From an uncultured Bacilli bacterium (GTDB taxonomy: Bacteria > Bacillota_I > Bacilli_A > RF39 > UBA660), in NCBI GenBank assembly GCA_934148535.1, contig CAKPDF010000004.1:32169-96168 (forward strand): a DNA stretch of 64,000 nt. The letters are read 5' to 3'. The notes under the pieces are model-generated. The model was not told the DNA's origin and searched no databases. It saw nothing but the letters and a program-made list of their open reading frames with translations. The position numbers and the translations under genes were made by a program. Within the stretch, counting starts at the first letter, position 1, and each line of letters starts with the position of its first letter. Shown here piece by piece: positions 3,982 to 63,227 of this stretch.

Positions 3982-4627
3982 TATGGATGATATTTTAAAT
4001 TATTTAGAAGAATTATATCCTAACGCCCACTGTGAATTGGAATATAAAAAAGATTATGAATTATTAATAGCAATAGTTTTAAGTGCTCAAACAACTGATA
4101 AAAGAGTAAATAAAGTAACAAAAGTTTTATTTTCAAAATACCCATCTTTAATATCATTAAAAGAAGCAAAATTAGAGAGTATTGAAAATATAATAAAAGA
4201 AATAGGAACTTATAAAAAGAAAAGTGTATTTGTAAAAAATATTGCAACAACCTTAGTAAATGATGGTTATACCAAAGTACCAAATGATAGAAAATACTTA
4301 GAAACATTAAGCGGTGTTGGTAGAAAAACAATAAATGTTTTTTTAGCAGAAATATATAATGTACCATCCATAGCAGTTGACACTCATGTAGAAAGAGTAA
4401 GTAAACGCATAAATTTAGCAAAAGAAGAAGATAATGTATTAACAATAGAGAAAAAACTAATGAAGAAAATTCCAAAAGAAAAATGGATAAAAGCCCATCA
4501 TCAATTAATATTTTTTGGAAGATATCACTGCAAAGCAATAAAACCTGATTGCAGTACTTGTAAGTTATCAAATATATGTAAATATTATAAAAAAGAGGTG
4601 TTAATAAATGGAAAGAAAAAGAATTGA
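3974..4627 (+). CDS. nth: Endonuclease III (DNA glycosylase/AP lyase)
   Basis: HhH-GPD motif (LSGVGRKTINVFL...VDTHVERV) and C-terminal 4Fe-4S Cys cluster C-x6-C-x2-C-x5-C. Strong colinearity with B. subtilis Nth. Confidence 0.9.
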   Translation: MNNMDDILNYLEELYPNAHCELEYKKDYELLIAIVLSAQTTDKRVNKVTKVLFSKYPSLISLKEAKLESIENIIKEIGTYKKKSVFVKNIATTLVNDGYTKVPNDRKYLETLSGVGRKTINVFLAEIYNVPSIAVDTHVERVSKRINLAKEEDNVLTIEKKLMKKIPKEKWIKAHHQLIFFGRYHCKAIKPDCSTCKLSNICKYYKKEVLINGKKKN

Positions 4628-8450: not shown

Positions 8451-9848
8451 ATGGCAGAGACTGAAGTGGTTCTAAGAGAAGCCTCAAGTTTAATGAGAAA
8501 AATAGTTGGGTATGAACAAGTATGTGAAAGAAGATTAAGTAATATAAACAATAATTTTGATACAACATCTGATAAAAGAGAAGAAAAATTAGAGACAAGA
8601 AAAGAGCTAAAATATTGGCAAAGCGTTCATCGAAAAATAGAAAGAGTAAGTGAAATTGCAGATATACATTTTGATGGTACAGAAGCAAAAAGACCAGAAT
8701 ATCCTCAAAAAATAGAAGTTTTAAATACTACTAAGATAATGATTTACTTAGAAAAAGCATTTTCTAAAAGTGGTCAAACAATGGATGCAGACCTAAAAAA
8801 ATTGGGAAAGATTATATCAGAAGAAGATAGAAATAGAGAAATGGGCAAAACGAAAAGAAAAATTCAAGATATAGAGCAAAGTAGAGATGAGCTTAAAACT
8901 CAAATGAAAGAACAACCAAGAGCCTTTTTCAAAAAGCCTTTATATTACCAAGAATGTATGGACTATATTGATAATATTTTAAAAGAAGTTCGTATTCCAA
9001 AAAGTACACATAGAGAATTTAATCCAGACGAACCAGTTAATGATGTTTCAACAATAACAGATTATGCAGGATTATTAGAAAGATATCAAACTTTAAAATT
9101 AGCAAATCGTCAATTAGAAGATATTGAATATCCGTTCATAACAAAAAGAATTACAGAATTACAAGATATCCAATATAAAAGGTCAGCAATTTCTATGGTG
9201 AAAATTTATTTAATGGATTTACCATATAAAAGTGATTATCAAGAAACCATCACCGAATTAAGAAATATTGATTTAAAATTAATACATCAACAGCAAAAAA
9301 TATTAGAAGAATTAAAAGAAAAAAGAATTATTACAACAATTACTAAAATAAAAATAGTAATAGATAAAGAAGAAAAAAGATTGAAGGAGAAAAGTGCAAT
9401 TGAACATGCAGTAGCTGACCTAGTAAGAAATTATAGTAAAAGTGCACTTATAAGAGTTCAAAAAGAACATAACCTTACAGATAGCCAATTATCTCAAGTA
9501 GAGTTAGCAGCAACTAGAATTATAAATGGAAAAGCACCACAACAACCAATTATACCAACAATTGCTACTCAACAGCAAGAAGCTAAGGAAGTAGTAAGTC
9601 CATCAATGAGTATTGAAGAAGAAGCTTTACTTAGAGCTAAAAAAAATGGATACATAGAAGTAGATAAAAAATTAAAAAATCTTTCAAAATTAGAAAGACA
9701 AATATTATATTCTTATGTTAGAGAAATTCAAACTGAAAACGAAGAAAAAAAGGAAGCTAGATTTAGCTCTATAAAACAAATATATGATCAAAAAGTGGAA
9801 GAGGAAAGGAAGCAAACTCATTCTTCATCAGTAGGAATGAGAAGATAA
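8451..9848 (+). CDS. Hypothetical 465-aa highly charged coiled-coil protein of unknown function
   Basis: Long ORF with RBS GAAGGGG 6 nt upstream of the ATG. No recognisable catalytic motifs. Confidence 0.5.
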   Translation: MAETEVVLREASSLMRKIVGYEQVCERRLSNINNNFDTTSDKREEKLETRKELKYWQSVHRKIERVSEIADIHFDGTEAKRPEYPQKIEVLNTTKIMIYLEKAFSKSGQTMDADLKKLGKIISEEDRNREMGKTKRKIQDIEQSRDELKTQMKEQPRAFFKKPLYYQECMDYIDNILKEVRIPKSTHREFNPDEPVNDVSTITDYAGLLERYQTLKLANRQLEDIEYPFITKRITELQDIQYKRSAISMVKIYLMDLPYKSDYQETITELRNIDLKLIHQQQKILEELKEKRIITTITKIKIVIDKEEKRLKEKSAIEHAVADLVRNYSKSALIRVQKEHNLTDSQLSQVELAATRIINGKAPQQPIIPTIATQQQEAKEVVSPSMSIEEEALLRAKKNGYIEVDKKLKNLSKLERQILYSYVREIQTENEEKKEARFSSIKQIYDQKVEEERKQTHSSSVGMRR

Positions 9849-15819: not shown

Positions 15820-16542
15820 ATGCTAAGATATATTATTTGTGAAGACAACTCAAACTTTCTTCAAAAAATTTCAGAAGTTGTCCATAAAACAATGATGAGT
15901 TATCAAATAAATTATAAAGTAAATAAATTTACTGGATTCAATAATGAATTAGAAGAACTTATAAAAGATAAAAATGATCACAAAGTTTATATACTTGATG
16001 TAGAAATTCCAGAAGTATCAGGATTAGAAATAGCATCAATGATTAGAACTAGAGATTCAGCAAGTACTATAATATTTTTAACTTCATATCCAGAGTATAA
16101 AAATGATGTGTTTTATTCAAGATTATTAGCATTAGACTACATTCAAAAAGGAGCGCTGTGGGTAGATAGACTAAGTGACACATTGCAATATGTGTTAAAA
16201 AGAATCGAAAAAGATAAATCTCTATCATTTAAGTACAATGGTAATGAGTATAGAGTAGAGTTAGGTGAAATAAATTATATTGAAAAAGTACAAGAGCATA
16301 AAAAGTGTAACATTCATACAAGAGACGGTAAAGTTTATCAAGTATCAACAACATTAAAAGAATTAGAAAAAGAGTTAGGCCCATTCTTTTATCAATGTCA
16401 TAAATCAGTTATAGTAAATATAAATAATATAAAACATATTGATTATCCTAATAACGCTATCACATTCAAAAATAATTCTAGAGAATATCTAATATCAAAT
16501 AGAAATAAGAAAGGATTGAAAGAATATGTTAAAAATCATTGA
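15820..16542 (+). CDS. agrA: LytTR-family response regulator (AgrA-like)
   Basis: N-terminal receiver domain (acidic pocket ...YILDVEIPEVSGLE), C-terminal LytTR DNA-binding domain. Translationally overlaps the downstream AgrC-like kinase. Confidence 0.8.
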   Translation: MLRYIICEDNSNFLQKISEVVHKTMMSYQINYKVNKFTGFNNELEELIKDKNDHKVYILDVEIPEVSGLEIASMIRTRDSASTIIFLTSYPEYKNDVFYSRLLALDYIQKGALWVDRLSDTLQYVLKRIEKDKSLSFKYNGNEYRVELGEINYIEKVQEHKKCNIHTRDGKVYQVSTTLKELEKELGPFFYQCHKSVIVNINNIKHIDYPNNAITFKNNSREYLISNRNKKGLKEYVKNH

Positions 16543-17815
16543 TTCATACTTTGGAATATTAATAATGATGTTTGGAATTATATGTTTTGCAAAGATAATA
16601 CTAAATGAGAAAATTAAAGTTTCAAAAATAAAGTTATCATTAGTAATACTAATTAGTTCTGTAGCCTATACTTTATTAACTTTGTACGCTGATGGTGTAG
16701 AGAAAACATTAATCATAGTTTTATTGAACATCATTACATTTATGTATCTATTTGAGATTGATTATTCAACATCAATAACACTAACATTATTATATATTAC
16801 ATTATTACTTATTCCAGAAATACTAGTACTCATCATACTTGAAATAGGAGTGAACATTCCAAAAACATTATTTTGTGGTGGAATAATTGGTAATACAATA
16901 ATATATATATTATTCTTACCCTTAGTTTATATTGCAAGAAAACAATTGAATAAATTTGTTAATTATAAAATAAATAAAAATGCAAAAATATTAATTTTTT
17001 CAATCTTAACTTTTGTATGTATTAGTGTAGTTTTTTATAATGCATTTATTAATATTAACCCTGGTATCAATTTAATAGTAAGTATATTCATGATAATAGT
17101 TTTTATATGCATTTTGTTAAATTTAATGAAAGAAATGATAAATAACAGCAAATTAATAAGAAAATATGAACAAATTTTAGAATTTATGACCACATATGAA
17201 GATGAAGTAGAAAAACAAAGAGTTCTAAGACATGAGACTAAAAATGCATTTTTAAGTATTAAAGCTCAATTAACAGATAAAACAGAAACTCAAGAGATAA
17301 TTAATTATATAGATAGTATTCTTGAAGATGATGTTAAAATTAAAAATGAAGAATATGCAAAATTTAAATATTTACCTGCTAATGGAATAAAAGGTCTATG
17401 TTATTATAAAATTCAAGAAGCAGAAAATAGAAATATTAAAGTTTCAATAAATATTTCATCAAGAATAAAAAAATCCAGTTTATCTAAGCTATCAGTAAAA
17501 GAAATAAAAGAGTTGGGTAAAATATTAGGTGTTTATCTAGATAATGCAATTGAGGCAAGTGTAAAATCTGAAGATAAAAAACTAGGATTTGAAGCATATT
17601 TAATAGATAACAAAGTAAAAATAATAATTTCAAATACATATAAAGGTGAACTTTCAAAAGAAAAAATTGGAAATGAAATATATTCAACAAAAGGTAAAAA
17701 TAGAGGGCATGGATTATTATTGGTAAAAGAAATAGTAAGTAATAATAAAATGTTTAATATTGATACTGAAATAACAGATAGTTTATATATACAAAGTTTA
17801 ACAATAGAAAAATAG
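16526..17815 (+). CDS. agrC: AgrC-like (HPK10 family) membrane sensor histidine kinase
   Basis: About 6 N-terminal TM helices, H-box RHETKNAF, C-terminal GHKL ATPase G-box KGKNRGHGLLLVKEIV. Confidence 0.8.
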   Translation: MLKIIDSYFGILIMMFGIICFAKIILNEKIKVSKIKLSLVILISSVAYTLLTLYADGVEKTLIIVLLNIITFMYLFEIDYSTSITLTLLYITLLLIPEILVLIILEIGVNIPKTLFCGGIIGNTIIYILFLPLVYIARKQLNKFVNYKINKNAKILIFSILTFVCISVVFYNAFININPGINLIVSIFMIIVFICILLNLMKEMINNSKLIRKYEQILEFMTTYEDEVEKQRVLRHETKNAFLSIKAQLTDKTETQEIINYIDSILEDDVKIKNEEYAKFKYLPANGIKGLCYYKIQEAENRNIKVSINISSRIKKSSLSKLSVKEIKELGKILGVYLDNAIEASVKSEDKKLGFEAYLIDNKVKIIISNTYKGELSKEKIGNEIYSTKGKNRGHGLLLVKEIVSNNKMFNIDTEITDSLYIQSLTIEK

Positions 17816-18035
17816 TATATTTAATTTAGGAGTTTAATAATATAATATTAATATATTGAAAATATAAGAGAATAAAAAATCAAGGATAATGTTTTTAATT
17901 TAATTTAAAGCCTTGTTTTTTTATTATGCGTTATGATTAATGTATAATGAATTAGAAAAATATGCATACCTAAATAACATTATCATAAACACATTTAGAA
18001 AAATTTGTTATGGTAATTATATTTTTTGTAATAAT

Positions 18036-18070
18036 ATATATAAAAACAAGGCCTATTTTTATTGCCTTGT
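18036..18070 (-). terminator. Rho-independent terminator of agrB-agrD (minus strand)
   Basis: On the minus strand: stem ACAAGGC / GCCTTGT with an 11-nt loop, then TTTTTATATA. Lies immediately 3' of the agrD stop. Confidence 0.65.
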
Positions 18071-18086
18071 CCTTAAAGTCTATTAA

Positions 18087-18209
18087 TTATTTTTCTATTA
18101 AACTTTTTGGCATTCTAGGTTCATCAACTATCCAAATAAAGCATCCTTGTGTACCTGCACTAGCAGCAGCACCTCCTATTTTTGCTAAAATATCAGCAAT
18201 AAATTTCAT
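18087..18209 (-). CDS. agrD: AgrD autoinducing-peptide precursor, 40 aa. Not in the ORF track because it is under the 60-aa cutoff.
   Basis: Minus-strand ATG at 18209 with RBS AGGAAGGAGAG 7 nt upstream. Translation is MKFIADILAKIGGAAASAGTQGCFIWIVDEPRMPKSLIEK. It has an amphipathic leader, a single Cys followed by hydrophobic residues, then a DEP...PK acidic/Pro tail like staphylococcal AgrD (YSTCDFIMDEVEVPKEL). Lies 40 bp downstream of agrB. Confidence 0.8.
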   Translation of the reverse strand: MKFIADILAKIGGAAASAGTQGCFIWIVDEPRMPKSLIEK

Positions 18210-18249
18210 ATTATATCTCTCCTTCCTATTCTATATATGTTTAAATAAA

Positions 18250-18855
18250 TTAAACACCGCAATTATATTTTTTGTAGTTATCATATGGCAAGCTAAATAT
18301 CTTATAAACAAACGGATGAATCATTAATATGGCTTCCACTAAACCACATAACAAATATCCACTGACAATATTATCTTTAAAATAAATAATTAATATTAAA
18401 TAAATTATGCCCTTTATACAACTTTTAATTTTAAGAATCCTTCTCTTTTTTGCATTAATAAGAGGCCTTTTAACTGTGTCAGCAGGAGCATACTTTAAAA
18501 GTAAAATGATTGATATCGTACATAGTACTATTTTTATCACTAATGGGATTGTAGCAATGTATTTACTCAAATAAACCCCACCGATAAATAAAGTAATTGA
18601 TGAAATCAAACAATAAATACTTTTACTAGCATGAAGTCCATATGCTGTCGATCTAATCAAATTATAACATAGTAGCAACAGCACTACTTCTTTTAAGATT
18701 CCTAGCAAATATGCAAGACCAAATATTACAATTAATTTTGTCACGGTCAAATACAAAGTTTCAAGTCCATAAGAGATTTCTTCTAATCTTATATCATCAA
18801 AATCATAGTTAGAAGCAATGATATTAACTGAATAATTTAAAAATTTTTTTTTCAT
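18250..18855 (-). CDS. agrB: AgrB accessory gene regulator B (AgrD-processing membrane peptidase), 201 aa. True start 18855, not 18915.
   Basis: Membrane protein with the AgrB catalytic region IRSTAYGLHASKSIYCLISS (R...G.HA...C..S) and APADTVKRP motif. RBS AAGGAGAGAGAA immediately upstream of the ATG at 18855. The 20-codon extension in the ORF track has no RBS. Confidence 0.85.
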   Translation of the reverse strand: MKKKFLNYSVNIIASNYDFDDIRLEEISYGLETLYLTVTKLIVIFGLAYLLGILKEVVLLLLCYNLIRSTAYGLHASKSIYCLISSITLFIGGVYLSKYIATIPLVIKIVLCTISIILLLKYAPADTVKRPLINAKKRRILKIKSCIKGIIYLILIIYFKDNIVSGYLLCGLVEAILMIHPFVYKIFSLPYDNYKKYNCGV

Positions 18856-18873
18856 TTCTCTCTCCTTGTCATA

Positions 18874-18905
18874 ATTATAAGTCATAACATTACTGATGAA
18901 ACTTA
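18874..18905 (-). promoter_or_regulatory. Candidate agrBD promoter
   Basis: On the minus strand, TATAAT (complement of 18874-18879) about 20 nt upstream of the RBS. The -35 is weak (TTTCAT-like). Confidence 0.35.
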
Positions 18906-19196
18906 AAGAAATCAATAAACAAAAAGTAATTTATAACAATAAAAACATAAACACTTAATTAATAAAAATATCTAAAATAACGGAAAAAAAGAAAAAAAAT
19001 TAGTTCTTAAATTAAAGTAAGATGTAGCAAACAAAAAATGATAACTATATGTATACAACATTTCATTTAAAGAATAAAAATATTTATAATATAAAAAATG
19101 AAAGAACTAAAATATATTGTTGTAATTAATTATATAAAGTTCACTTTTCATAAAAAGAAAAAAGTGATATAATATTATCACCAAGAGGAGGTTTTT

Positions 19197-19961
19197 ATGA
19201 AATTACAAATTAAAAATTTAACAGTAGAAGTAGAAGAAAAAATAGTATTAAAAGATTTTAACCTAGAAATAAAAGAAGGAGAAATTCACACTATAATGGG
19301 ACCAAACGGTGTAGGTAAATCTACATTATCACGTGTAATAATGGGAGATCCTAATTATAAAGTTTTAAATGGCGATATATTATTTGAAGGAAAAAGCATA
19401 ATAAATTTAAAAACCGATGAAAGAAGCAGATTAGGAATATTTTTAGCAATGCAAAATCCAACCGAAATAGAAGGAGTAAGCAATCAAGACTTTTTAAGGA
19501 CAGCAATATCTGCTAAAAAACAAGAAAGAATAGGTCTATATGAATTTATAATAAAATGTGAAAAATGTACTGAAGAACTAAAGATGAATAAAGATTTAAT
19601 TCACAGATCATTAAACGTTGGATTTTCAGGAGGAGAAAAAAAGAAAAATGAAGTTCTTCAAATTAAATTATTAAATCCATCATTTATAATATTAGATGAA
19701 TTAGATTCTGGATTAGATGTAGACAGTTTAAAAATAGTTTGTAAGAACTTGAAAGAATATTTGAAAGAAAATCCAGAAACATCTGTAATAATAATAACCC
19801 ACTATAATATGATATTAAATTACTTAACACCTGATTATGTCCATATATTAAGTAATCACAAAATAGTTAAAACAGGAAATTATGATTTAGCAAAGGATAT
19901 TGAAAAAAATGGTTATAATAAATATATAAATGTCATAAACGAGGAAAATAAAGATGAATAG
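19197..19961 (+). CDS. sufC: Fe-S cluster assembly ATPase SufC
   Basis: Walker A MGPNGVGKSTL, ABC signature FSGGEKKKNE, Walker B ILDELDSGLD. Preceded by an extended -10 TGATATAAT. Confidence 0.9.
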   Translation: MKLQIKNLTVEVEEKIVLKDFNLEIKEGEIHTIMGPNGVGKSTLSRVIMGDPNYKVLNGDILFEGKSIINLKTDERSRLGIFLAMQNPTEIEGVSNQDFLRTAISAKKQERIGLYEFIIKCEKCTEELKMNKDLIHRSLNVGFSGGEKKKNEVLQIKLLNPSFIILDELDSGLDVDSLKIVCKNLKEYLKENPETSVIIITHYNMILNYLTPDYVHILSNHKIVKTGNYDLAKDIEKNGYNKYINVINEENKDE

Positions 19962-20715
19962 AATACTAGTAGAAAAAGATAAAATAAAAAACTATAAAGA
20001 CTCCAATGTTGAAATATTAAATGACACTATATTTTTTAAAAAATCAGGAGAGTATACAATAGAGTACATTGATTGTAAAAATGTAACACTTAATATTAAT
20101 GTAGATGAAAATGTGATGATTAAAATCTTCGAATATGCAGATAGTCAATCATTAAATATAAATAATATATACAATCAAAATAAATATAGTAACCTATTAT
20201 TATTTAAGTTTTATAATAACAAAGAAGTAAAAGAAGAAATAACATTTAACTTAAATGGTGAATATTCAAAAGTAGATTATCATTTTTCAAATATTTGTAG
20301 CAATTTAGAACAATATCATATTGTAATTAATCATAATGCATCAAATACAGAAAGCTTAATAAATAACAAATCAATAACCATAGAGGAATCTGATTTATCA
20401 TTCACAATAGATAGTGTTCTACCAAAAGGTAATAAGGAATGTAATTTAGACCAACAAACTAGAATAATAACACTAGATGATAGTAATGCTAAAATAGAAC
20501 CAAATATGTTTATAGAAGAAAATGATGTATCAGCAAAACATGGATCAGTTATTGGTAAATTTAGAGAAGAAGAGTTATTTTATCTTTTAGCAAGAGGAAT
20601 TCCAGAACAAGAAGCAATAAAGTTATTAATAAAAGGATATATATTTTCTAATTTATTAGTAGATTTAGATAAAAGAGCAAAAATATTTAATATAATTAAT
20701 GAAAAATGGAGGTGA
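19954..20715 (+). CDS. sufD: SufD-like Fe-S assembly protein (SufB/SufD C-terminal domain; N-terminally shorter than Bacillus SufD)
   Basis: C-terminal SufBD domain (HGSVIGKFREEELFYLLARGIPEQEAIKLLIKGYI). Overlaps the sufC stop. Confidence 0.7.
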   Translation: MNRILVEKDKIKNYKDSNVEILNDTIFFKKSGEYTIEYIDCKNVTLNINVDENVMIKIFEYADSQSLNINNIYNQNKYSNLLLFKFYNNKEVKEEITFNLNGEYSKVDYHFSNICSNLEQYHIVINHNASNTESLINNKSITIEESDLSFTIDSVLPKGNKECNLDQQTRIITLDDSNAKIEPNMFIEENDVSAKHGSVIGKFREEELFYLLARGIPEQEAIKLLIKGYIFSNLLVDLDKRAKIFNIINEKWR

Positions 20716-20719
20716 AAAA

Positions 20720-21919
20720 ATGAATAGAGAAGACTTTCCAATGTTAAATAAAAATGAAGTAATATATTTTGACAATGGAGCCACAACCTTAAAACCTCAA
20801 CCAGTAATAGATGCTGTTGTAGATTACTATACAAATTATACAGCTAATGCCCATAGAGGAGATTACAAAAATAGTTTAAAAGTTGATGACAATTATGAAG
20901 GAGTAAGAAAAAAAGTAAAAGAATTCATAAATGCCAAAGAAACAAGTGAAATTGCTTTTACCTCAGGAACAACTGACAGCATGAATTTAATAGCATTTGG
21001 TTATTTCAAAAACATCTTACAAAAAGATGACGAAGTGCTAATAACAGAAAGTGAACACGCATCAAATATCTTGCCTTGGTTTATCCTAGCAAAAGAAATT
21101 GGAATAAAAGTAAAATATATACCACTTAGCAAAAAAAATGAAGTAATAATTGAAAATGTAGAAAAAGCAATTACTCCCAAAACAAAAGTAATATCTTTAG
21201 CACAAATTACAAATGTAATAGGAGATATAAGACCAATACAAGAAATATCATCTATAGCACATAAAAAAAATATTTATGTAGTAGTTGATGCTGCTCAAAG
21301 TATAGCCCATACTAAAGTAGATGTGCAAAAGTTAGATATTGATTTTCTAGCATTCTCAGCTCACAAAATATATGGCCCAACTGGAGTTGGCGTAATTTAT
21401 GGAAAATTTAATTTTTTAGATAAGTTAATTCCAAGAAATTATGGTGGTGGAATGAATGCAACATTTACAACAGATGGATATTTAGAATTAAGAGAAATAC
21501 CAGTAAGACTAGAAGCAGGCACTCCAAATATAGCAGGTGTAATAGGATTAGGAGCAGCAATCGACTATGTAAATAATATTGGTATTGATAATATCAAAGA
21601 GTATGAACATATGTTAAAAAGATATTTAGTATCAAAACTAAAACAATTAGATTTTATAGAAATATATAATGAATTTAATTCTGGTAGCATTGTAGCATTT
21701 AATATAAAAAATGTTTTTAGCCAAGATACAGCAGTTTATTTAGACAAATATAATATTTGTGTAAGAGCAGGTAATCATTGCGCTAAAATATTAAATAACG
21801 TATTTAATGTAAACAATACCTGCAGAATAAGTTTAAGTTTTTATAACACTAAAGAAGAAATTGATAAACTAATAGAAGTATTGAAAAATAGTGGAAATAT
21901 TTGGAATGAAATATTATAA
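20720..21919 (+). CDS. sufS: Cysteine desulfurase SufS. The ORF track start at 20699 is probably an over-extension.
   Basis: PLP-lysine motif SAHKIYGPTGVGVIYGK and catalytic Cys in NHCAKIL. RBS GGAGGTGA before the ATG at 20720. Confidence 0.85.
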   Translation: MNREDFPMLNKNEVIYFDNGATTLKPQPVIDAVVDYYTNYTANAHRGDYKNSLKVDDNYEGVRKKVKEFINAKETSEIAFTSGTTDSMNLIAFGYFKNILQKDDEVLITESEHASNILPWFILAKEIGIKVKYIPLSKKNEVIIENVEKAITPKTKVISLAQITNVIGDIRPIQEISSIAHKKNIYVVVDAAQSIAHTKVDVQKLDIDFLAFSAHKIYGPTGVGVIYGKFNFLDKLIPRNYGGGMNATFTTDGYLELREIPVRLEAGTPNIAGVIGLGAAIDYVNNIGIDNIKEYEHMLKRYLVSKLKQLDFIEIYNEFNSGSIVAFNIKNVFSQDTAVYLDKYNICVRAGNHCAKILNNVFNVNNTCRISLSFYNTKEEIDKLIEVLKNSGNIWNEIL

Positions 21920-21931
21920 GAAGGTGTAAAT

Positions 21932-22366
21932 ATGGATAGCAATTTAAAAAGAAGCATAATATTAGATAATTATCAAAATCCAGTAAATAGAAGAAAAGAA
22001 GATAATAATCCTAGCTATGAAAAATTAAATACAAGAAACGTATCTTGTATTGATAATATAGATTTATACATAAAAATAAAGGATAATATTATAGAAGATA
22101 TATCATTTGATGGAGAAGCGTGCGCAATAAGTATATCCTCAACATCTATTATGACAAATATTTTAAAGGGCAAGAAAGTAGAAGATGCAATAAAAATAAT
22201 AGAAGAATATGAAAAAATGATAGATGAAAAAGAATATGACAAAGATTTAATAAAAGAAGCAATAGTATATGAAGATATTTCTAAACAACCAGCAAGAATT
22301 AAGTGCGCCACACTCACATGGAATGGACTATATAAAAAGTTAAAAGAAATAGAAGAAAAAAAATAA
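21932..22366 (+). CDS. sufU: SufU/IscU-like Fe-S scaffold/sulfurtransferase
   Basis: NifU-like N-terminal domain with conserved Cys residues (CID..., GEACAISISS..., KCATLTW). Confidence 0.8.
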   Translation: MDSNLKRSIILDNYQNPVNRRKEDNNPSYEKLNTRNVSCIDNIDLYIKIKDNIIEDISFDGEACAISISSTSIMTNILKGKKVEDAIKIIEEYEKMIDEKEYDKDLIKEAIVYEDISKQPARIKCATLTWNGLYKKLKEIEEKK

Positions 22367-22407
22367 TCTTCTATTTTTAATTTTATCTAAAAAAAAGCAA
22401 AAATATA

Positions 22408-22416
22408 TGTTATAAT
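22408..22416 (+). promoter_or_regulatory. Extended -10 promoter element for the HipA-like gene
   Basis: TGTTATAAT (TGnTATAAT) 20 nt upstream of the RBS GGAAGTGA. Confidence 0.4.
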
Positions 22417-22436
22417 TATAATAGGAAGTGATCTAA

Positions 22437-23654
22437 ATGAATATAGAATCATTAATTAAAGAAATAGCAAATAATTATAATCTAACTAAAGAAGAAGAAA
22501 CTAAAATGTTAGAAATGTATAAAAATGATACAAGAAATCAAGTATCATTAGAAGTAGAACTAAATTCCTTAGCAGATTATTATAATTGGCAAAACAAAGT
22601 AGCAACAGCAATTAAAAATGCTCCACCACTACAACAAAACCAAAACTATTATATAAGAACATATGATGATAAAAGTAATATAATTCTTCAAGGAGTAAAT
22701 ATAGAAAAAATATCAGATACTGCCAGTGGTATTAATCAAGTAGAAAAAGTATTAATTGATAATAAGTATAGAGCATATAAAAAAGTAGATAGAGTTGATG
22801 TAGCTGATAATGACATGGAAATAGCAATTTGTCAAATAGGAAATTTATTAAATGTAAGTGGTGCCGAAGAATATACTGTATATAATTCTAATAAAGAAAA
22901 AGATTCTATAATAAGTAGAAGTGTAGCAGATTCAGAGTACGAAGAATTCTATGATTTTACAAGTTTGTACATTAAAGTAGATAAATATATAAAAGAAGGA
23001 AAAATAAAAAATTCTAAAGTATCTGAATATAGTGATTTCAAATTTAATAATAGCAAAGAAGATTATATAAAAGTGATAGAAAAAAGTATACAAATAATAA
23101 GATCATTACCAATGATAAGTCAAAAAGATATAAGAAGTATAAAAGCATCATATTTTGACATGATTATATTTGGTTATATTACAAATCAAGTAGACAGAAA
23201 TCTAAATAATTATGGGCTAATATGCAATAAAAAGACAAAAGAATATAGATTTGCTCCATTATTTGATAATAGCATTATATTGTTACCAAATCTAGAAGAA
23301 AATCAATGTAGTTTTAATGGATACATATGCAATAGAAATAAATTAATAGATTGTTTATTTGAAAATTATTATGAAGATATAAAAGAAAAAGTAACATATA
23401 TAATAAATAATAAAACAAGACTAATTCAGATAATCGATATAATAGCCAAACAAAATCTTGACATAAAAAGTTACAATCTATTAATGGAAAAAATAATAAA
23501 AAACATTTCTTACATAGAAGAAAAATATCTAGAAAAAAATAATATTATAGCACCAGAAAATGCTGGTTATGTTAATATATTAAATATGTTTATAATCTTA
23601 ACCTTAATAGCAACCATATCGATATCAATAGCATGTTTCTTATTAAGAAGGTAA
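22437..23654 (+). CDS. HipA-like Ser/Thr kinase-domain protein with a C-terminal transmembrane helix
   Basis: Segment FDMIIFGYITNQVDRNLNNYGLICNKKTKEYRFAPLFDNS matches the HipA_C core (G-N-x-D-x-H-L-K-N-F-S-L... L-A-P-x-Y-D). The last ~25 residues are hydrophobic. Confidence 0.5.
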   Translation: MNIESLIKEIANNYNLTKEEETKMLEMYKNDTRNQVSLEVELNSLADYYNWQNKVATAIKNAPPLQQNQNYYIRTYDDKSNIILQGVNIEKISDTASGINQVEKVLIDNKYRAYKKVDRVDVADNDMEIAICQIGNLLNVSGAEEYTVYNSNKEKDSIISRSVADSEYEEFYDFTSLYIKVDKYIKEGKIKNSKVSEYSDFKFNNSKEDYIKVIEKSIQIIRSLPMISQKDIRSIKASYFDMIIFGYITNQVDRNLNNYGLICNKKTKEYRFAPLFDNSIILLPNLEENQCSFNGYICNRNKLIDCLFENYYEDIKEKVTYIINNKTRLIQIIDIIAKQNLDIKSYNLLMEKIIKNISYIEEKYLEKNNIIAPENAGYVNILNMFIILTLIATISISIACFLLRR

Positions 23655-23659
23655 AAGAA

Positions 23660-23700
23660 AAGAATTTATAGTTATTTATATAAATTCTCTTTTTTTTTCT
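23660..23700 (+). terminator. Rho-independent terminator of the HipA-like gene
   Basis: 10-bp stem AGAATTTATA / TATAAATTCT, then CTTTTTTTTT. Confidence 0.7.
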
Positions 23701-23739
23701 AAAAATTTAGTTTATAATAATAAAGAAAAAGGTGATCTT

Positions 23740-25050
23740 ATGAAATTAACAGAACAGGTAGTAAAAGAAATATCAAATATAAAACAAGAACCAAAATGGA
23801 TGACAGATTTTAGAGTAAACTCATATAAATCATTCATTAAACATAAAGAGCCAAATTTTGGACCAAAGTTAAATATAGATTATGACAGTATAACATACTA
23901 CAAAAAAAGAGAGCAAGAGTTAACAAATAATTGGAATAACGTAAATTGTAAGGTAAGAGATTTATTTGATGACTTAGGTGTAATAAAAGCAGAAAAAAAT
24001 TATTTAGATGGAATAGGAGCTCAATATGATAGTGAAGTAATATATCACAATATGATAAAAGAATTAGAAGAAAAAAATGTAATATTTATGGATACTGATT
24101 CCGCATTAAAATACCATGAAAACATATTTAAAAAATACTTTAATAAACTTGTAAAATACGATGAAAATAAATTTACAGCTTTAAATGGAGCCGTTTGGAG
24201 TGGGGGTACATTTATATATATTCCACCCCATACCAAACTAGATAGACCATTACAAAGTTATTTTAGGATAAATAGCAAAAATATGGGCCAGTTTGAAAGA
24301 ACATTAATAATAGTAGATGACGATAGTGAACTTCATTACATAGAAGGATGTACTGCCCCAACATATACGGAAGATGCATTGCATGCTGCAGTAGTAGAAA
24401 TATATGTAGGCAAAAATTCTAAATGTCGATACACAACAATCCAAAATTGGTCAAGTGATGTATACAATCTAGTTACTAAAAGAGCAATAGTAGAAGAAAA
24501 TGGACTAATGGAATGGATAGACGGAAATGTAGGAGCAAAAAACAATATGAAATATCCAGCCTGCATATTAAAAGGAAAATATGCAAGAGGAAGTTGTATA
24601 ACAGTAGCCTCAGCATCAGCAGGTCAAATTCAAGATACAGGAGCAAAAATGATTCATTTAGCCCCATATACAAAAAGTAACATTGTTTCTAAATCTATAG
24701 CATCTAATGGAGGAAATGCAACCTACAGAGGACTAGTTAAAATAGCAAAAGAGGCCCATCATTCAAGCGCAAGTGTAAAATGTGATACAATAATACTAGA
24801 TGAAAAATCAAAAAGTGATACAGTACCAACAAATATAGTAAATAATAAAACATCATTTTTAGAACATGAAGCTACAGTATCTAAAATAAGTGAAGATAAA
24901 TTATTCTATTTAACAAGCAGAGGAATAGATGAAGATACAGCCAAAGAATTAATAATCTTAGGATTTGTTAATGAATTTAGAGAAGAACTGCCTATGGAAT
25001 ATGCTGTAGAATTAAATAGATTATTATCTTTAAATATAAATTCAGACTAA
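23740..25050 (+). CDS. sufB: Fe-S cluster assembly protein SufB
   Basis: SufB-type C-terminal domain (MIHLAPYTKSN..., ...EDKLFYLTSRGIDEDTAKELIILGF). Length 436 aa. Confidence 0.85.
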   Translation: MKLTEQVVKEISNIKQEPKWMTDFRVNSYKSFIKHKEPNFGPKLNIDYDSITYYKKREQELTNNWNNVNCKVRDLFDDLGVIKAEKNYLDGIGAQYDSEVIYHNMIKELEEKNVIFMDTDSALKYHENIFKKYFNKLVKYDENKFTALNGAVWSGGTFIYIPPHTKLDRPLQSYFRINSKNMGQFERTLIIVDDDSELHYIEGCTAPTYTEDALHAAVVEIYVGKNSKCRYTTIQNWSSDVYNLVTKRAIVEENGLMEWIDGNVGAKNNMKYPACILKGKYARGSCITVASASAGQIQDTGAKMIHLAPYTKSNIVSKSIASNGGNATYRGLVKIAKEAHHSSASVKCDTIILDEKSKSDTVPTNIVNNKTSFLEHEATVSKISEDKLFYLTSRGIDEDTAKELIILGFVNEFREELPMEYAVELNRLLSLNINSD

Positions 25051-25272: not shown

Positions 25273-25644
25273 ATGTTGAATCAAGTAGTTTTAGTAGGTA
25301 GATTAGTAAAAAATCCAGAACTACAAGTAACTGATAATGGTAAAAAAGTTACAACAATAACTTTAGCAGTACCAAGAGGCTACAAAAATATTAATGGAGA
25401 ATATGATACAGATTTCTTGGATTGTACATTATGGACAAATGTTGCTGAAAATACGACAGAATACTGTAAAAGTGGAGACATGATTGGTGTAAAAGGCCGT
25501 ATTCAAACTAGAGTTATAGAAACAGAAGATGGAAAAAGAAAAAAGACAGAAATAGTAGCAGACAAAATTAGCTTTTTAGCATCTTCACCTAACAATTCAA
25601 AAAAAGAAAAAACTATAGAAAAACCAAAAGCAAAAGAAAAATAA
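25273..25644 (+). CDS. ssb: Single-stranded DNA-binding protein (OB fold; lacks the acidic DDDIPF tail)
   Basis: MLNQVVLVGRLVKNPELQ...TTITLAV...DCTLWTNVAEN...GDMIGVKGRIQTR canonical SSB OB fold. C-terminus ends KPKAKEK. Confidence 0.8.
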   Translation: MLNQVVLVGRLVKNPELQVTDNGKKVTTITLAVPRGYKNINGEYDTDFLDCTLWTNVAENTTEYCKSGDMIGVKGRIQTRVIETEDGKRKKTEIVADKISFLASSPNNSKKEKTIEKPKAKEK

Positions 25645-25823: not shown

Positions 25824-26177
25824 ATGTTAGTTGGAAAAAGAATTAAAGACATGAGATTAGAAAAAGGCATGTCACAACAAGAATTAGGAGATTTAATAGG
25901 AGTAACAAAAGTATCTATATGCGGATATGAAAATGGAACAAGAACGCCAAGCCTAGAAACATTTGGTATTTTGGCAGATATATTTGAAACAACTACAGAT
26001 TACTTATTAGGAAGAGAAGTACCTATCGTAAATGAAGAAGCAAACGAATACATAGGTTCAATATCTAAAGACGATATAGAGATAATTCAAGAATTAAGAC
26101 ATTATCCAAATTTATATGCAAAACTAGTTAAAGATGTTAAAAGATACGTTAGTTTAATCAATAAGAAAATGAGATAG
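25824..26177 (+). CDS. XRE-family helix-turn-helix transcriptional regulator
   Basis: HTH_3 motif MSQQELGDLIGVTKVSICGYENGTRTPSLETFGILADIFETTTDYLLG. Confidence 0.8.
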   Translation: MLVGKRIKDMRLEKGMSQQELGDLIGVTKVSICGYENGTRTPSLETFGILADIFETTTDYLLGREVPIVNEEANEYIGSISKDDIEIIQELRHYPNLYAKLVKDVKRYVSLINKKMR

Positions 26178-50819: not shown

Positions 50820-50895
50820 TGGTGTCCCGTATGAGATTTGAACTCATGACCCTTTGATTAAAAGTCAAATGCTCTACCGGCTGAGCTAACGGAAC
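50820..50895 (-). tRNA. tRNA-Lys (anticodon TTT), CCA encoded
   Basis: Hand-folded cloverleaf. Anticodon loop CTTTTAA. 7-bp acceptor stem. Terminal CCA encoded. Confidence 0.85.
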
Positions 50896-50902
50896 ATAGA
50901 TA

Positions 50903-50977
50903 TGGTTGCCTCGGCTAGACTCGAACTAGCGAATGCCACAGTCAAAGTGTGGTGCCTTACCGCTTGGCTACGAGGCA
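50903..50977 (-). tRNA. tRNA-Gln (anticodon TTG), CCA encoded
   Basis: Anticodon loop CTTTGAC. T-arm GCTAG-TTCGAGT-CTAGC. Acceptor TGCCTCG/CGAGGCA. Confidence 0.8.
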
Positions 50978-50999
50978 ATTACCGTTGGAACAAATAAAG

Positions 51000-51083
51000 T
51001 GGTGGAAGGAGATGGATTCGAACCATCGAACCCGAAGGAACAGATTTACAGTCTGCCGCGTTTAGCCACTTCGCTACCCTTCC
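51000..51083 (-). tRNA. tRNA-Tyr (anticodon GTA), long variable arm, CCA encoded
   Basis: Anticodon loop CTGTAAA. 84-85 nt with an extra arm, as for bacterial tRNA-Tyr. Confidence 0.8.
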
Positions 51084-51090
51084 AAAAAAA

Positions 51091-51167
<77 letters not shown>

Positions 51168-51173
51168 AAAAAA

Positions 51174-51250
51174 TGGTGGGCGATATAGGACTCGAACCTA
51201 TGACCCCTTGCTTGTAAGGCAAGTGCTCTAACCAACTGAGCTAATCGCCC
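51174..51250 (-). tRNA. tRNA-Val (anticodon TAC), CCA encoded
   Basis: Anticodon stem-loop CTTGC-CTTACAA-GCAAG. Acceptor GGGCGAT/ATCGCCC. Confidence 0.85.
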
Positions 51251-62795: not shown

Positions 62796-62871
<76 letters not shown>

Positions 62872-62875
62872 ATAA

Positions 62876-62952
62876 TGGCGGTTCGTACGGGATTTGAACC
62901 CGTGATCTTCTGCGTGACAGGCAGACGTCATAGGCCTCTAGACTAACGAACC
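62876..62952 (-). tRNA. tRNA-Asp (anticodon GTC), CCA encoded
   Basis: Anticodon stem-loop TCTGC-CTGTCAC-GCAGA. Confidence 0.85.
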
Positions 62953-62954
62953 AT

Positions 62955-63031
<77 letters not shown>

Positions 63032-63040
63032 ATAAATTAG

Positions 63041-63133
63041 TGGCGGAGAAAAAGGGATTCGAACCCCTGCGCCGCTCTCGCGACCTCCCGGTTTTCAAGA
63101 CCGGTCCCTTCAACCAGACTTGGGTATTTCTCC
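63041..63133 (-). tRNA. tRNA-Ser (anticodon TGA), long variable arm, CCA encoded
   Basis: About 93 nt. Anticodon stem-loop CCGGT-CTTGAAA-ACCGG. Extra arm GGGAGGTCGCGAGAGCGGCGCAGG. Confidence 0.8.
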
Positions 63134-63138
63134 AAAGA

Positions 63139-63227
63139 TGGTGCCTAAGGTCGGACTTGAACCGACACGAGGGTTGAATCTCGCAGGATTTTAAGTCCTG
63201 TGCGTCTACCTATTCCGCCACTCAGGC
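63139..63227 (-). tRNA. tRNA-Leu (anticodon TAA), long variable arm, CCA encoded
   Basis: About 89 nt. Anticodon stem-loop CAGGA-CTTAAAA-TCCTG. Confidence 0.8.

Follow-up and report, generated by a model that had tools for sequence, protein, structure and literature searches.

A predicted tail-anchored, pseudokinase-like relative of HipA encoded 5' of sufB in uncultured gut Bacilli

A stretch of 64,000 nucleotides from an uncultured Bacilli bacterium of the RF39 lineage (assembly GCA_934148535.1, contig CAKPDF010000004.1, positions 32,169 to 96,168 of the forward strand), referred to here as the window, carries between the genes sufU and sufB a 405-residue open reading frame (ORF), named here gene X. 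Its product, protein X, is read, with confidence slightly better than even, as a pseudokinase-like protein with a tail anchor, conserved for a binding or scaffolding role at the membrane. As modeled, a cytoplasmic domain of the HipA/HipT/CtkA fold would follow three N-terminal helices and precede a single C-terminal transmembrane (TM) helix, leaving almost nothing outside the cell, and selection would more likely maintain the binding of a nucleotide or ligand, or a scaffold function on the cytoplasmic side of the membrane, than canonical phosphotransfer. X belongs to an uncurated, deeply diverged line of the HipA_C superfamily that occurs in uncultured, low-GC Bacilli of the gut. Proteins of the HipA family are familiar chiefly as toxins involved in persistence (HipA, HipT) or as effectors that are secreted (CtkA). 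Whereas the fold and the superfamily of X are known, the tail-anchored, catalytically decaying, chromosomally fixed branch to which it belongs is new, being absent from curated libraries and from the literature searched. The first-pass annotation of the window, which had drawn attention to a HipA-like gene with a membrane anchor between sufU and sufB, is confirmed in nearly every detail of what it observed; its interpretation requires the revisions described below.

Fold and homology of protein X

The AlphaFold2 model of X, calculated from an alignment of 18 sequences (predicted local distance difference test, pLDDT, 83.6; predicted template-modeling score, pTM, 0.80), contains helices at residues 3–60, a beta-rich lobe at 71–173, a helical lobe at 174–367, a low-confidence linker, and a final helix at 379–404. 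The resulting architecture is an N-terminal three-helix region (residues 1–60), a kinase-fold domain (about 65–370), an NAGYVN linker, and a C-terminal TM helix. The three helices of the N-terminus are not the beta-rich N-subdomain of HipA, and no match to PF13657 was obtained for them. Foldseek comparison with the PDB ranks CtkA first (3akj/3akk; E 2e-6, template-modeling score 0.63–0.65 on the target), then 7wcf and 7vkc, both of which are Legionella HipT Lpg2370 (E 1–3e-4), and next E. coli and Shewanella HipA (3dnv, 3tpv, 2wiu; probability 0.97–1.00). CtkA, HipT and HipA are the top matches, each with a probability of 1.00, and generic kinase folds (APH, PI3K, CotH) rank lower. CtkA is also the sole match of a phmmer search against PDB sequences (E 4e-4, residues 233–292 of X).

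Sequence profiles approach the same superfamily indirectly. A Pfam scan of X gives no match even at E ≤ 1, including HipA_C and couple_hipA (PF13657), an NCBIfam scan likewise gives none, and a PHROGs scan returns nothing useful. Close paralogues of X reach sub-threshold HipA_C scores of 17–27 bits against a cut-off of 30.5, and an hhalign comparison of the family alignment with the single E. coli HipA sequence is weak (E 0.12), with the expected motifs aligned. The A1 profile retrieves four relatives (P0134, P0156, P0168 and P0171) at E 5e-11 to 2e-7, and these four, out of nine relatives scanned, pass the Pfam HipA_C gathering score. A Clostridium butyricum protein annotated as HipA domain-containing (HipA_C, 36.2 bits) shares 43% identity with X across a 54-residue core, and distant relatives of X carry the classical DRHxxN motif. 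Taken together, the fold, the profile matches and the identity to the C. butyricum core make X a remote but genuine member of the HipA_C superfamily (PF07804) of the compact CtkA/HipT type, with a homology to HipA_C that is transitive. The HipA-family identity proposed at first pass is accordingly upheld by fold and profile homology, whereas a direct Pfam match of X to HipA_C or couple_hipA is lacking.

A profile search of 1.84 billion representatives identified 346 relatives of X at E ≤ 1e-3. The matches listed come from metagenome assemblies and metagenome-assembled genomes (MAGs), mostly from gut, that are labelled Bacilli, Erysipelotrichaceae or Firmicutes, and databases name members of the family nothing beyond "hypothetical protein".

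Active-site residues

Three alignments concur in equating D253, N255, N258 and D277 of X with D309, H311, N314 and D332 of HipA and with D155, H157, N160 and D179 of CtkA. The two core motifs of X, GYITNQVDRNLNNYGLI and RFAPLFDNS, align with the catalytic loop and Mg-binding Asp of HipA, CtkA and the C. butyricum HipA_C protein, in agreement with the HipA_C-like core recognized at first pass. The suspicion that the conserved catalytic-loop His is replaced is likewise borne out: the residue is Asn255 in X, and His occupies this position in none of 32 orthologues. In HipT this His contacts the gamma-phosphate, and the mutant H199A is catalytically inactive and non-toxic, as is also the case for mutants of the two Lys, the Asn and the Asp; toxicity of HipT requires K61, K85, H199, N202 and D219, and the P-loop Ser mutants S57A and S57D are still toxic (PMC9325769).

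Other active-site positions vary among the 32 orthologues. Position 253 is D in 11, E in 14, H in five and N in two; position 258 is N in 17, D in 14 and S in one; and position 277 is D in 23 and E in nine. By comparison, K116, E128 and R254 are invariant or nearly so. The orthologues fall into clade A, 65–96% identical to X, and clade B, ∼38–43% identical. The P-loop-like segment of clade A, TASGINQVEK, has a one-residue insertion relative to the pattern S-x-x-G-x-Q-x-K, with model pLDDT below 50 at residues 97–99, and a deletion of six residues removes the segment in all clade B copies. At locus L039 the orthologue has N253 and E277; it is an intact gene in full synteny, and its promoter and terminator are conserved. 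Because orthologues tolerate replacement of the catalytic Asp by H, N or E, of the Mg-binding Asp by E and of the Mg-binding Asn by D, as well as deletion of the P-loop, and have no gamma-phosphate His, the selected function of X is probably not canonical phosphotransfer.

Soluble and anchored members of the wider family differ in this respect. Among 66 soluble relatives D253 is present in 63 and N258, D277 and K116 in 61 each, and among 33 other tail-anchored relatives D253 is present in 15, N258 in 16 and D277 in 20, although these residue counts lack phylogenetic independence and the most remote members are aligned with uncertainty. Judged from these alignments, loss of catalytic-residue conservation goes with the membrane anchor.

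Membrane anchor

The C-terminal TM helix reported at first pass is present at about residues 381–403. Full-length X orthologues carry a hydrophobic helix of ∼20 residues that ends 2–6 residues from the C-terminus and follows a conserved NAGY(V/I)N motif; the sole exception, P0014, is an aberrant fusion-like sequence of 505 residues covering 80% of X. Since X has neither a signal peptide nor an extracytoplasmic domain, its kinase-like domain is predicted to be cytoplasmic, and X should be a tail-anchored protein and not a receptor kinase. A terminal hydrophobic segment is found in 64 of the 131 listed wider-family representatives of at least 270 residues, so that the X locus belongs to a sizeable unannotated branch of which about half is membrane-anchored. 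Anchored members, unlike soluble ones, combine relaxed catalytic residues with purifying selection, a pattern that marks a radiation of pseudokinases inside a family of toxins and would constitute a non-toxin use of the HipA fold.

Transcription units at the X locus

A generic promoter and terminator scan is uninformative in DNA of 21–30% GC, returning 63 promoter-like sites against 56.5 expected, and the signals were therefore judged by RNA folding and cross-species conservation. Directly 5' of the X start, a block of the form ATGnTATA(A/C)TnAnAATAGGA is invariant in clades A and B, across X identities of 87–88%, 73%, 65% and ∼41%; the sequence farther upstream and the upstream gene are unrelated. 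The Shine-Dalgarno region is conserved as AATAGGA(A/T)GTGAT in clade A and reads AATAGGATAGTGAT in clade B. On the 3' side, the terminator of X folds with a minimum free energy of −12.4 kcal/mol (z −3.0 relative to shuffled sequences, and z −4.2 for its counterpart at locus L028). Clade A retains this hairpin, in which an A-U pair of the window is G-C at L028, a compensatory change; it escaped the consensus scanner owing to a stem with just two G-C pairs. At the clade B locus L006 another hairpin with a T-run lies 3' of X (z −1.9), and at L003 there is only a weak, non-significant A/U stem.

All relatives compared have a separate −10 element and Shine-Dalgarno sequence before sufB, and the clade B counterpart of the −10 element is TGnTACAAT, read as TGGTACAAT or TGATACAAT. 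Upstream of X, a hairpin spanning the sufU stop codon folds at −10.3 kcal/mol (z −2.6) and probably ends the sufCDSU unit as a weak terminator or as an attenuator; an equivalent hairpin and T-run precede the X promoter at L001, L003, L006 and L039. Because the X signals are conserved across relatives they are considered real, and X is predicted to be its own transcription unit, with an extended −10 promoter, a strong Shine-Dalgarno sequence and an intrinsic terminator. The promoters, Shine-Dalgarno sequences and terminators separate three units, sufCDSU, X and sufB. The gene, its promoter, its terminator and the independent sufB promoter were all described at first pass, and each withstands this comparison.

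Gene order, inheritance and selection

The order of genes at clade A loci is ctpB, an agr locus, sufCDSU, a variable segment, X, sufB, ssb, an XRE gene and asnS. Clade B loci have uvrD/pcrA, X, sufB, ssb, ctpB and the agr locus, and lack sufCDSU over a distance of 8 kb. The X and sufB genes are adjacent at most loci, and sufB is 80–87% identical between clades at the amino-acid level. The adjacency of X and sufB is considered old because it is common to clades in which X is ∼40% and sufB ∼83% identical; the pair appears to predate the split of clades A and B. X is inherited vertically and keeps a constant chromosomal site immediately 5' of sufB. The pairing is not absolute, and X is intact without an adjoining sufB at 4 of 15 genome loci (L010, L011, L017 and L018), with a 433-residue ORF between X and ssb at L017.

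The sufU–X junction is the variable segment. The gap is 70 bp in the window and ∼965 bp at loci L028–L031, where an ORF bears the Y-2-R-3-E-6-K signature of the IS4 type and a YSRWNIENCGFRILK motif; this decayed fragment of an IS4-like transposase matches DDE_Tnp_1 below threshold (E 0.0086). A Band_7/Zn-ribbon gene occupies the gap at L001 and L002, and the same gene plus a 177-residue gene occupies it at L039. This junction is a hot spot for insertions among relatives; the inserts lie at 9037–10000 of L028, 2427–2885 of L029, 7448–9246 of L039 and 6755–7924 of L001. Related genomes, which may differ from those of clade B, contain sufCDSU without sufB (SufU 65–67% identical), beside gapA and sigma-factor-like genes. 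The suf genes are split into separate units throughout the group. The block of X and sufB, with ssb, is common to both clades and, in the clade of the window, lies just 3' of sufCDSU across a rearrangement-prone junction; the position of X between sufU and sufB would reflect lineage history. The proposal that X is inserted within a sufCDSUB operon therefore holds as to its position between sufU and sufB and fails as to a recent insertion into an intact operon, the pair of X and sufB being old and the upstream gene differing among relatives; the "insertion" is at best an ancient event. The split of the Firmicutes-type sufCDSUB into sufCDSU, X and sufB bears on the inference of suf regulation and on annotation in gut Bacilli.

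In comparison with the relative at L028, whose X is 87% identical, dN/dS (the ratio of nonsynonymous to synonymous divergence) for X is 0.083 (dN 0.066, dS 0.79), and the values for sufB are dN 0.007 and dS 0.29. These values indicate that X is under purifying selection, yet evolves faster than its neighbors. Synonymous divergence is uneven along the locus, with dS of 0.79 for X and 0.73 for ssb and of 0.12–0.38 for sufCDSU, sufB, the helix-turn-helix (HTH) gene and asnS, which could result from weaker codon-usage constraint or from allelic exchange by recombination. The GC content of X is the same as that of its flanks. A scan of viral contigs found no relatives of X, and tblastn searches of phage and plasmid collections returned only the 50-residue catalytic core of ordinary HipA-domain proteins, and a mobile-element origin of X was rejected on these grounds.

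Members of the wider family occur in other chromosomal contexts (truB, X', His_Phos_1, rpsO, pnp; and rplQ ... X'', ecfA), and no partner gene shared among them was found. A two-gene module was considered and rejected, as the upstream ORFs of 197, 210 and 260 residues are mutually unrelated and one of them is TruB. Some soluble family members are fused or adjacent to alpha/beta-hydrolases and may constitute a separate, active subfamily for small-molecule or peptide modification. One of them, P0062, is a soluble hydrolase-kinase fusion with intact catalytic residues, and another adjoins an alpha/beta-hydrolase gene 3' of four radical-SAM/SPASM genes (L035, 5131–6987).

Comparison with known systems

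CtkA (JHP0940) of Helicobacter pylori, the best structural and only significant PDB sequence match, resembles X in having a compact, HipA_C-only core without the HipA N-terminal subdomain and in its D-R-x-x-x-N...AP(I/L)FD core, at an overall identity of 15–18%. CtkA retains the His (DRHNGN) and is a soluble, secreted Ser/Thr kinase encoded on a conjugative element, whereas X has Asn for His, a TM anchor, an extra three-helix N-terminus, a core chromosomal gene, and catalytic residues that vary among orthologues. HipT of the HipBST systems (Legionella Lpg2370 and E. coli O127), the second-best structural match, consists of a HipA C-terminal core of about 300 residues. Its P-loop has a single Gly in S-V-Q-G-V-Q-K-K, compared with S-G-I-N-Q-V-E-K in clade A X, and HipS and HipB are encoded directly upstream of it; X is partnerless and His-less, and among its orthologues the Asp/Asn/Asp positions are variable and the P-loop may be missing. 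HipA of the E. coli hipBA operon (HipA_C PF07804 plus couple_hipA PF13657) shares with X the kinase fold and an aligned catalytic loop and Mg-binding Asp, but X has no N-terminal subdomain, no overlapping hipB and Asn in place of H311, and it has a TM anchor. In gene content and residues, X would be neither a HipBA nor a HipBST toxin module.

Bacterial and eukaryotic pseudokinases, as a general concept, offer a further parallel: in them, as in X, the fold is under purifying selection and the residues of the catalytic loop, the Mg site and the Gly-rich or P-loop are relaxed. K116 and E128 of X are the apparent equivalents of the beta3-Lys and alphaC-Glu, which X keeps as pseudokinases do. No tail-anchored pseudokinase of the HipA lineage is described in the curated libraries or literature searched. 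X is a useful lead for research on HipA kinases and pseudokinases.

Alternative explanations

Several observations weigh against reading X as a pseudokinase-like protein. The window allele retains all canonical residues except the His, that is, D253, N258, D277, K116, E128 and the P-loop SGINQVEK, and weak or atypical kinase activity is for that reason possible for this allele. Soluble relatives in which Asn, Thr or Ser replaces the His strongly conserve the other catalytic residues, with D, N and D kept in more than 92% of them; Asn may accordingly stand in for His, and this conservation suggests that the His-less branch can be enzymatically active. Within clade B, E253, D258 and D277 are invariant, which could represent an alternative acidic metal site instead of decay, and the near-invariance of K116, E128 and R254 may mean that nucleotide binding, and perhaps chemistry, persists. 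The adjacency of X and sufB outlasts rearrangements on either side, leaving room for a functional link with SufB. The statistical dependence of the residue counts and the uncertain alignment of the remotest members also count here, as does the mapping of residues from sequence alignments and not from model coordinates.

Given these residues and a fold and core that are clearly HipA-like, X might be a catalytically active Ser/Thr kinase like HipA and CtkA, tethered to the membrane and acting on cytoplasmic or membrane-proximal proteins or, in the extreme version, an orphan toxin acting on aminoacyl-tRNA synthetases. This is rather unlikely. HipT needs its His (PMC9325769), syntenic orthologues with H, N or E at position 253 and E at position 277 are intact, and clade B has lost the P-loop. 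Nor does HipB, HipS or any other antitoxin adjoin X: no HTH gene lies next to it, its flanks being sufU (NifU_N) upstream and sufB downstream by Pfam, and the upstream gene of relatives is uvrD/pcrA, a Band_7 gene or an insertion-sequence remnant; the lack of a HipB-like partner noted at first pass is upheld. Partnerless vertical inheritance and strong purifying selection would be atypical of a toxin. Thus, because an antitoxin and the essential His are missing, the Asp and P-loop are variable, and inheritance is vertical under purifying selection, the toxin kinase phosphorylating aminoacyl-tRNA synthetases envisaged in the first-pass annotation is unlikely. The tail anchor, which sets the active site at the membrane, could alternatively suit a lipid or small-molecule kinase, or another nucleotide-dependent enzyme, of the HipA/PI3-4K-like fold. 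Foldseek matches to PI3K, PI4KII-alpha, choline kinase and aminoglycoside kinases, a weak PI3_PI4_kinase Pfam match in one relative, and the alpha/beta-hydrolase links of soluble relatives, which hint at small-molecule chemistry, are in line with such an enzyme. However, loss of the catalytic Asp and of the P-loop speaks against phosphotransfer of any kind as the conserved function, and the template-modeling scores for lipid kinases are low (0.17–0.38), as for a generic kinase fold, making this explanation improbable.

The persistent neighborhood of sufB raises a different question, namely whether X is tied to Fe-S (iron-sulfur) assembly as a membrane-anchored regulator or accessory of SufB or of sufB expression. 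X lies directly 5' of sufB in clade A and at most clade B loci despite an X identity of ∼40%, and it does so while the upstream gene varies (sufU, an insertion-sequence remnant, a Band_7 gene, or uvrD/pcrA) and the gene 3' of sufB varies as well. Against this, a terminator separates X from sufB, which has its own promoter; X occurs without sufB at the four loci named above, and sufCDSU clusters occur without X; paralogues reside in unrelated housekeeping contexts (truB-rpsO-pnp and rplQ-ecfA); and X contains no Suf-related domain in Pfam or NCBIfam. Plain inherited synteny could also account for the adjacency, ssb and the agr genes being conserved nearby too. The comparison of suf loci establishes X as an old neighbor of sufB; X is most likely not a Suf component, and a regulatory or accessory tie to Fe-S assembly has only a slim chance of being correct. 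An equally speculative combination is that the HipA toxin-kinase fold was domesticated, in one line of gut Bacilli, as a housekeeping tail-anchored pseudokinase, an ATP- or ligand-sensing membrane scaffold, and that its lasting pairing with the separately transcribed sufB stems from genuine functional coupling, for example in membrane-linked control of Fe-S assembly. If true, it would add a hitherto unknown accessory or regulatory layer to the SUF system and provide the first physiological non-toxin role for a protein of the HipA lineage. Finally, a single-gene anti-phage or abortive-infection factor might be suspected from a PADLOC match to PDC-M03A (E 0.0078) and from the faster evolution of X relative to its flanks. 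The match is sub-significant and reflects the kinase fold, X occupies a fixed core-genome site among housekeeping genes and not a defence island, homology in phages and plasmids is limited to the catalytic core, and dN/dS is only 0.08, so a defence role is very improbable indeed. The pseudokinase-like reading, with a binding or scaffolding role at the membrane, is preferred on this evidence.

Neighboring genes and other features

Table 1. Features of the X locus and adjacent genes, in coordinates of the window
Feature	Position	Strand	Basis or remark
LytTR response regulator (agr locus)	15820–16542		
HATPase_c_5 histidine kinase (agr locus)	16526–17815		
AgrD-like peptide, 40 residues, containing GTQGCFIWIVDEPRMP	18087–18209	−	
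AgrB	18250–18915	−	
sufC-sufD-sufS-sufU block, predicted unit separate from X and sufB	19197–22366	+	Pfam; stand-alone copies in related genomes
sufC	19197–19961	+	Pfam ABC_tran
sufD, short	19954–20715	+	Pfam SUFBD_core
sufS	20699–21919	+	Pfam Aminotran_5, E 3e-133
sufU	21932–22366	+	Pfam NifU_N, E = 9e-18
Hairpin over sufU stop codon, followed by U-rich tract	22349–22378	+	Stem 22349–22356/22367–22374
Extended −10 promoter of X, TGTTATAAT	22408–22416	+	TATAAT at 22411–22416; sequence and cross-clade conservation
Shine-Dalgarno sequence of X, AGGAAGTGATC	22423–22433	+	Complementary to 16S 3' end
Gene X, 405 residues, ATG start	22437–23654	+	Between sufU and sufB
P-loop-like S97–K104, SGINQVEK	22725–22748	+	Alignments; cf. 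HipA SVAGAQEK, HipT SVQGVQKK
Catalytic loop D253-R254-N255-L256-N257-N258	23193–23210	+	Equivalent to HipA D309-G-H311-A-K-N314, CtkA D155-R-H-N-G-N160
Mg-binding Asp motif A273-P-L-F-D277-N278	23256–23273	+	HipA D332, CtkA D179
C-terminal tail-anchor helix codons (residues about 381–403)	23577–23645	+	KD19 = 2.68; 2 residues from C-terminus
Intrinsic terminator of X	23661–23698	+	10-bp stem 23661–23670/23679–23688, 8-nt loop, T9 run 23690–23698
sufB −10 element and Shine-Dalgarno sequence AGGTGATC	23713–23737	+	TATAAT at 23713–23718; Shine-Dalgarno at 23730–23737
sufB, conserved neighbor 3' of X	23740–25050	+	Pfam SufBD_N and SUFBD_core, E = 7e-80

The SufD protein of the window has 253 residues and contains SUFBD_core only, and this short form is kept in all relatives examined. 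The sufCDSU clusters that stand alone lie on Bacilli MAG contigs at 4264–7441 of L038 and 4170–7435 of L040, and their neighbors include genes with sigma-70 region 2/4 matches. At L038 the cluster is followed by an integrase/Mob_Pre/Fic mobile element and at L040 by unrelated surface-protein genes. One 2.9-kb contig (L009, CAVJSY010000167.1), encoding an X 88% identical and a sufB 98% identical to those of the window, is binned as Oribacterium sp. (Lachnospiraceae), which looks like a binning error because all other assignments are to Bacilli.

The conserved partner 3' of the X-sufB block is a stand-alone ssb gene (25273–25644) encoding 123 residues with a Lys/Glu-rich tail that ends in KEK; this tail is without the acidic DDD(I/L)PF tip of housekeeping SSB, and the protein resembles the competence-type SsbB. 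Beyond sufB and ssb, two genes and 2.2 kb 3' of X, lies a gene for an XRE/HTH_3 regulator of 117 residues (25824–26177), whose product is 100% identical between the window and L028 while neighboring proteins differ by 2–15%. It was considered as a displaced HipB and rejected, since sufB and ssb intervene and the XRE gene is confined to clade A loci, with none at those of clade B.

Just upstream of sufC, at 15820–18915, is a complete quorum-sensing locus of the agr type. Its predicted autoinducer core is CFIWI in the window and CYVLI at L028, a difference that suggests specificity groups. An Rfam scan found only tRNAs in the window and nothing in the spacer of relatives. The tRNA genes (RF00005, 56–78 bits) form two clusters of five on the minus strand, at 50823–51250 and 62799–63227.

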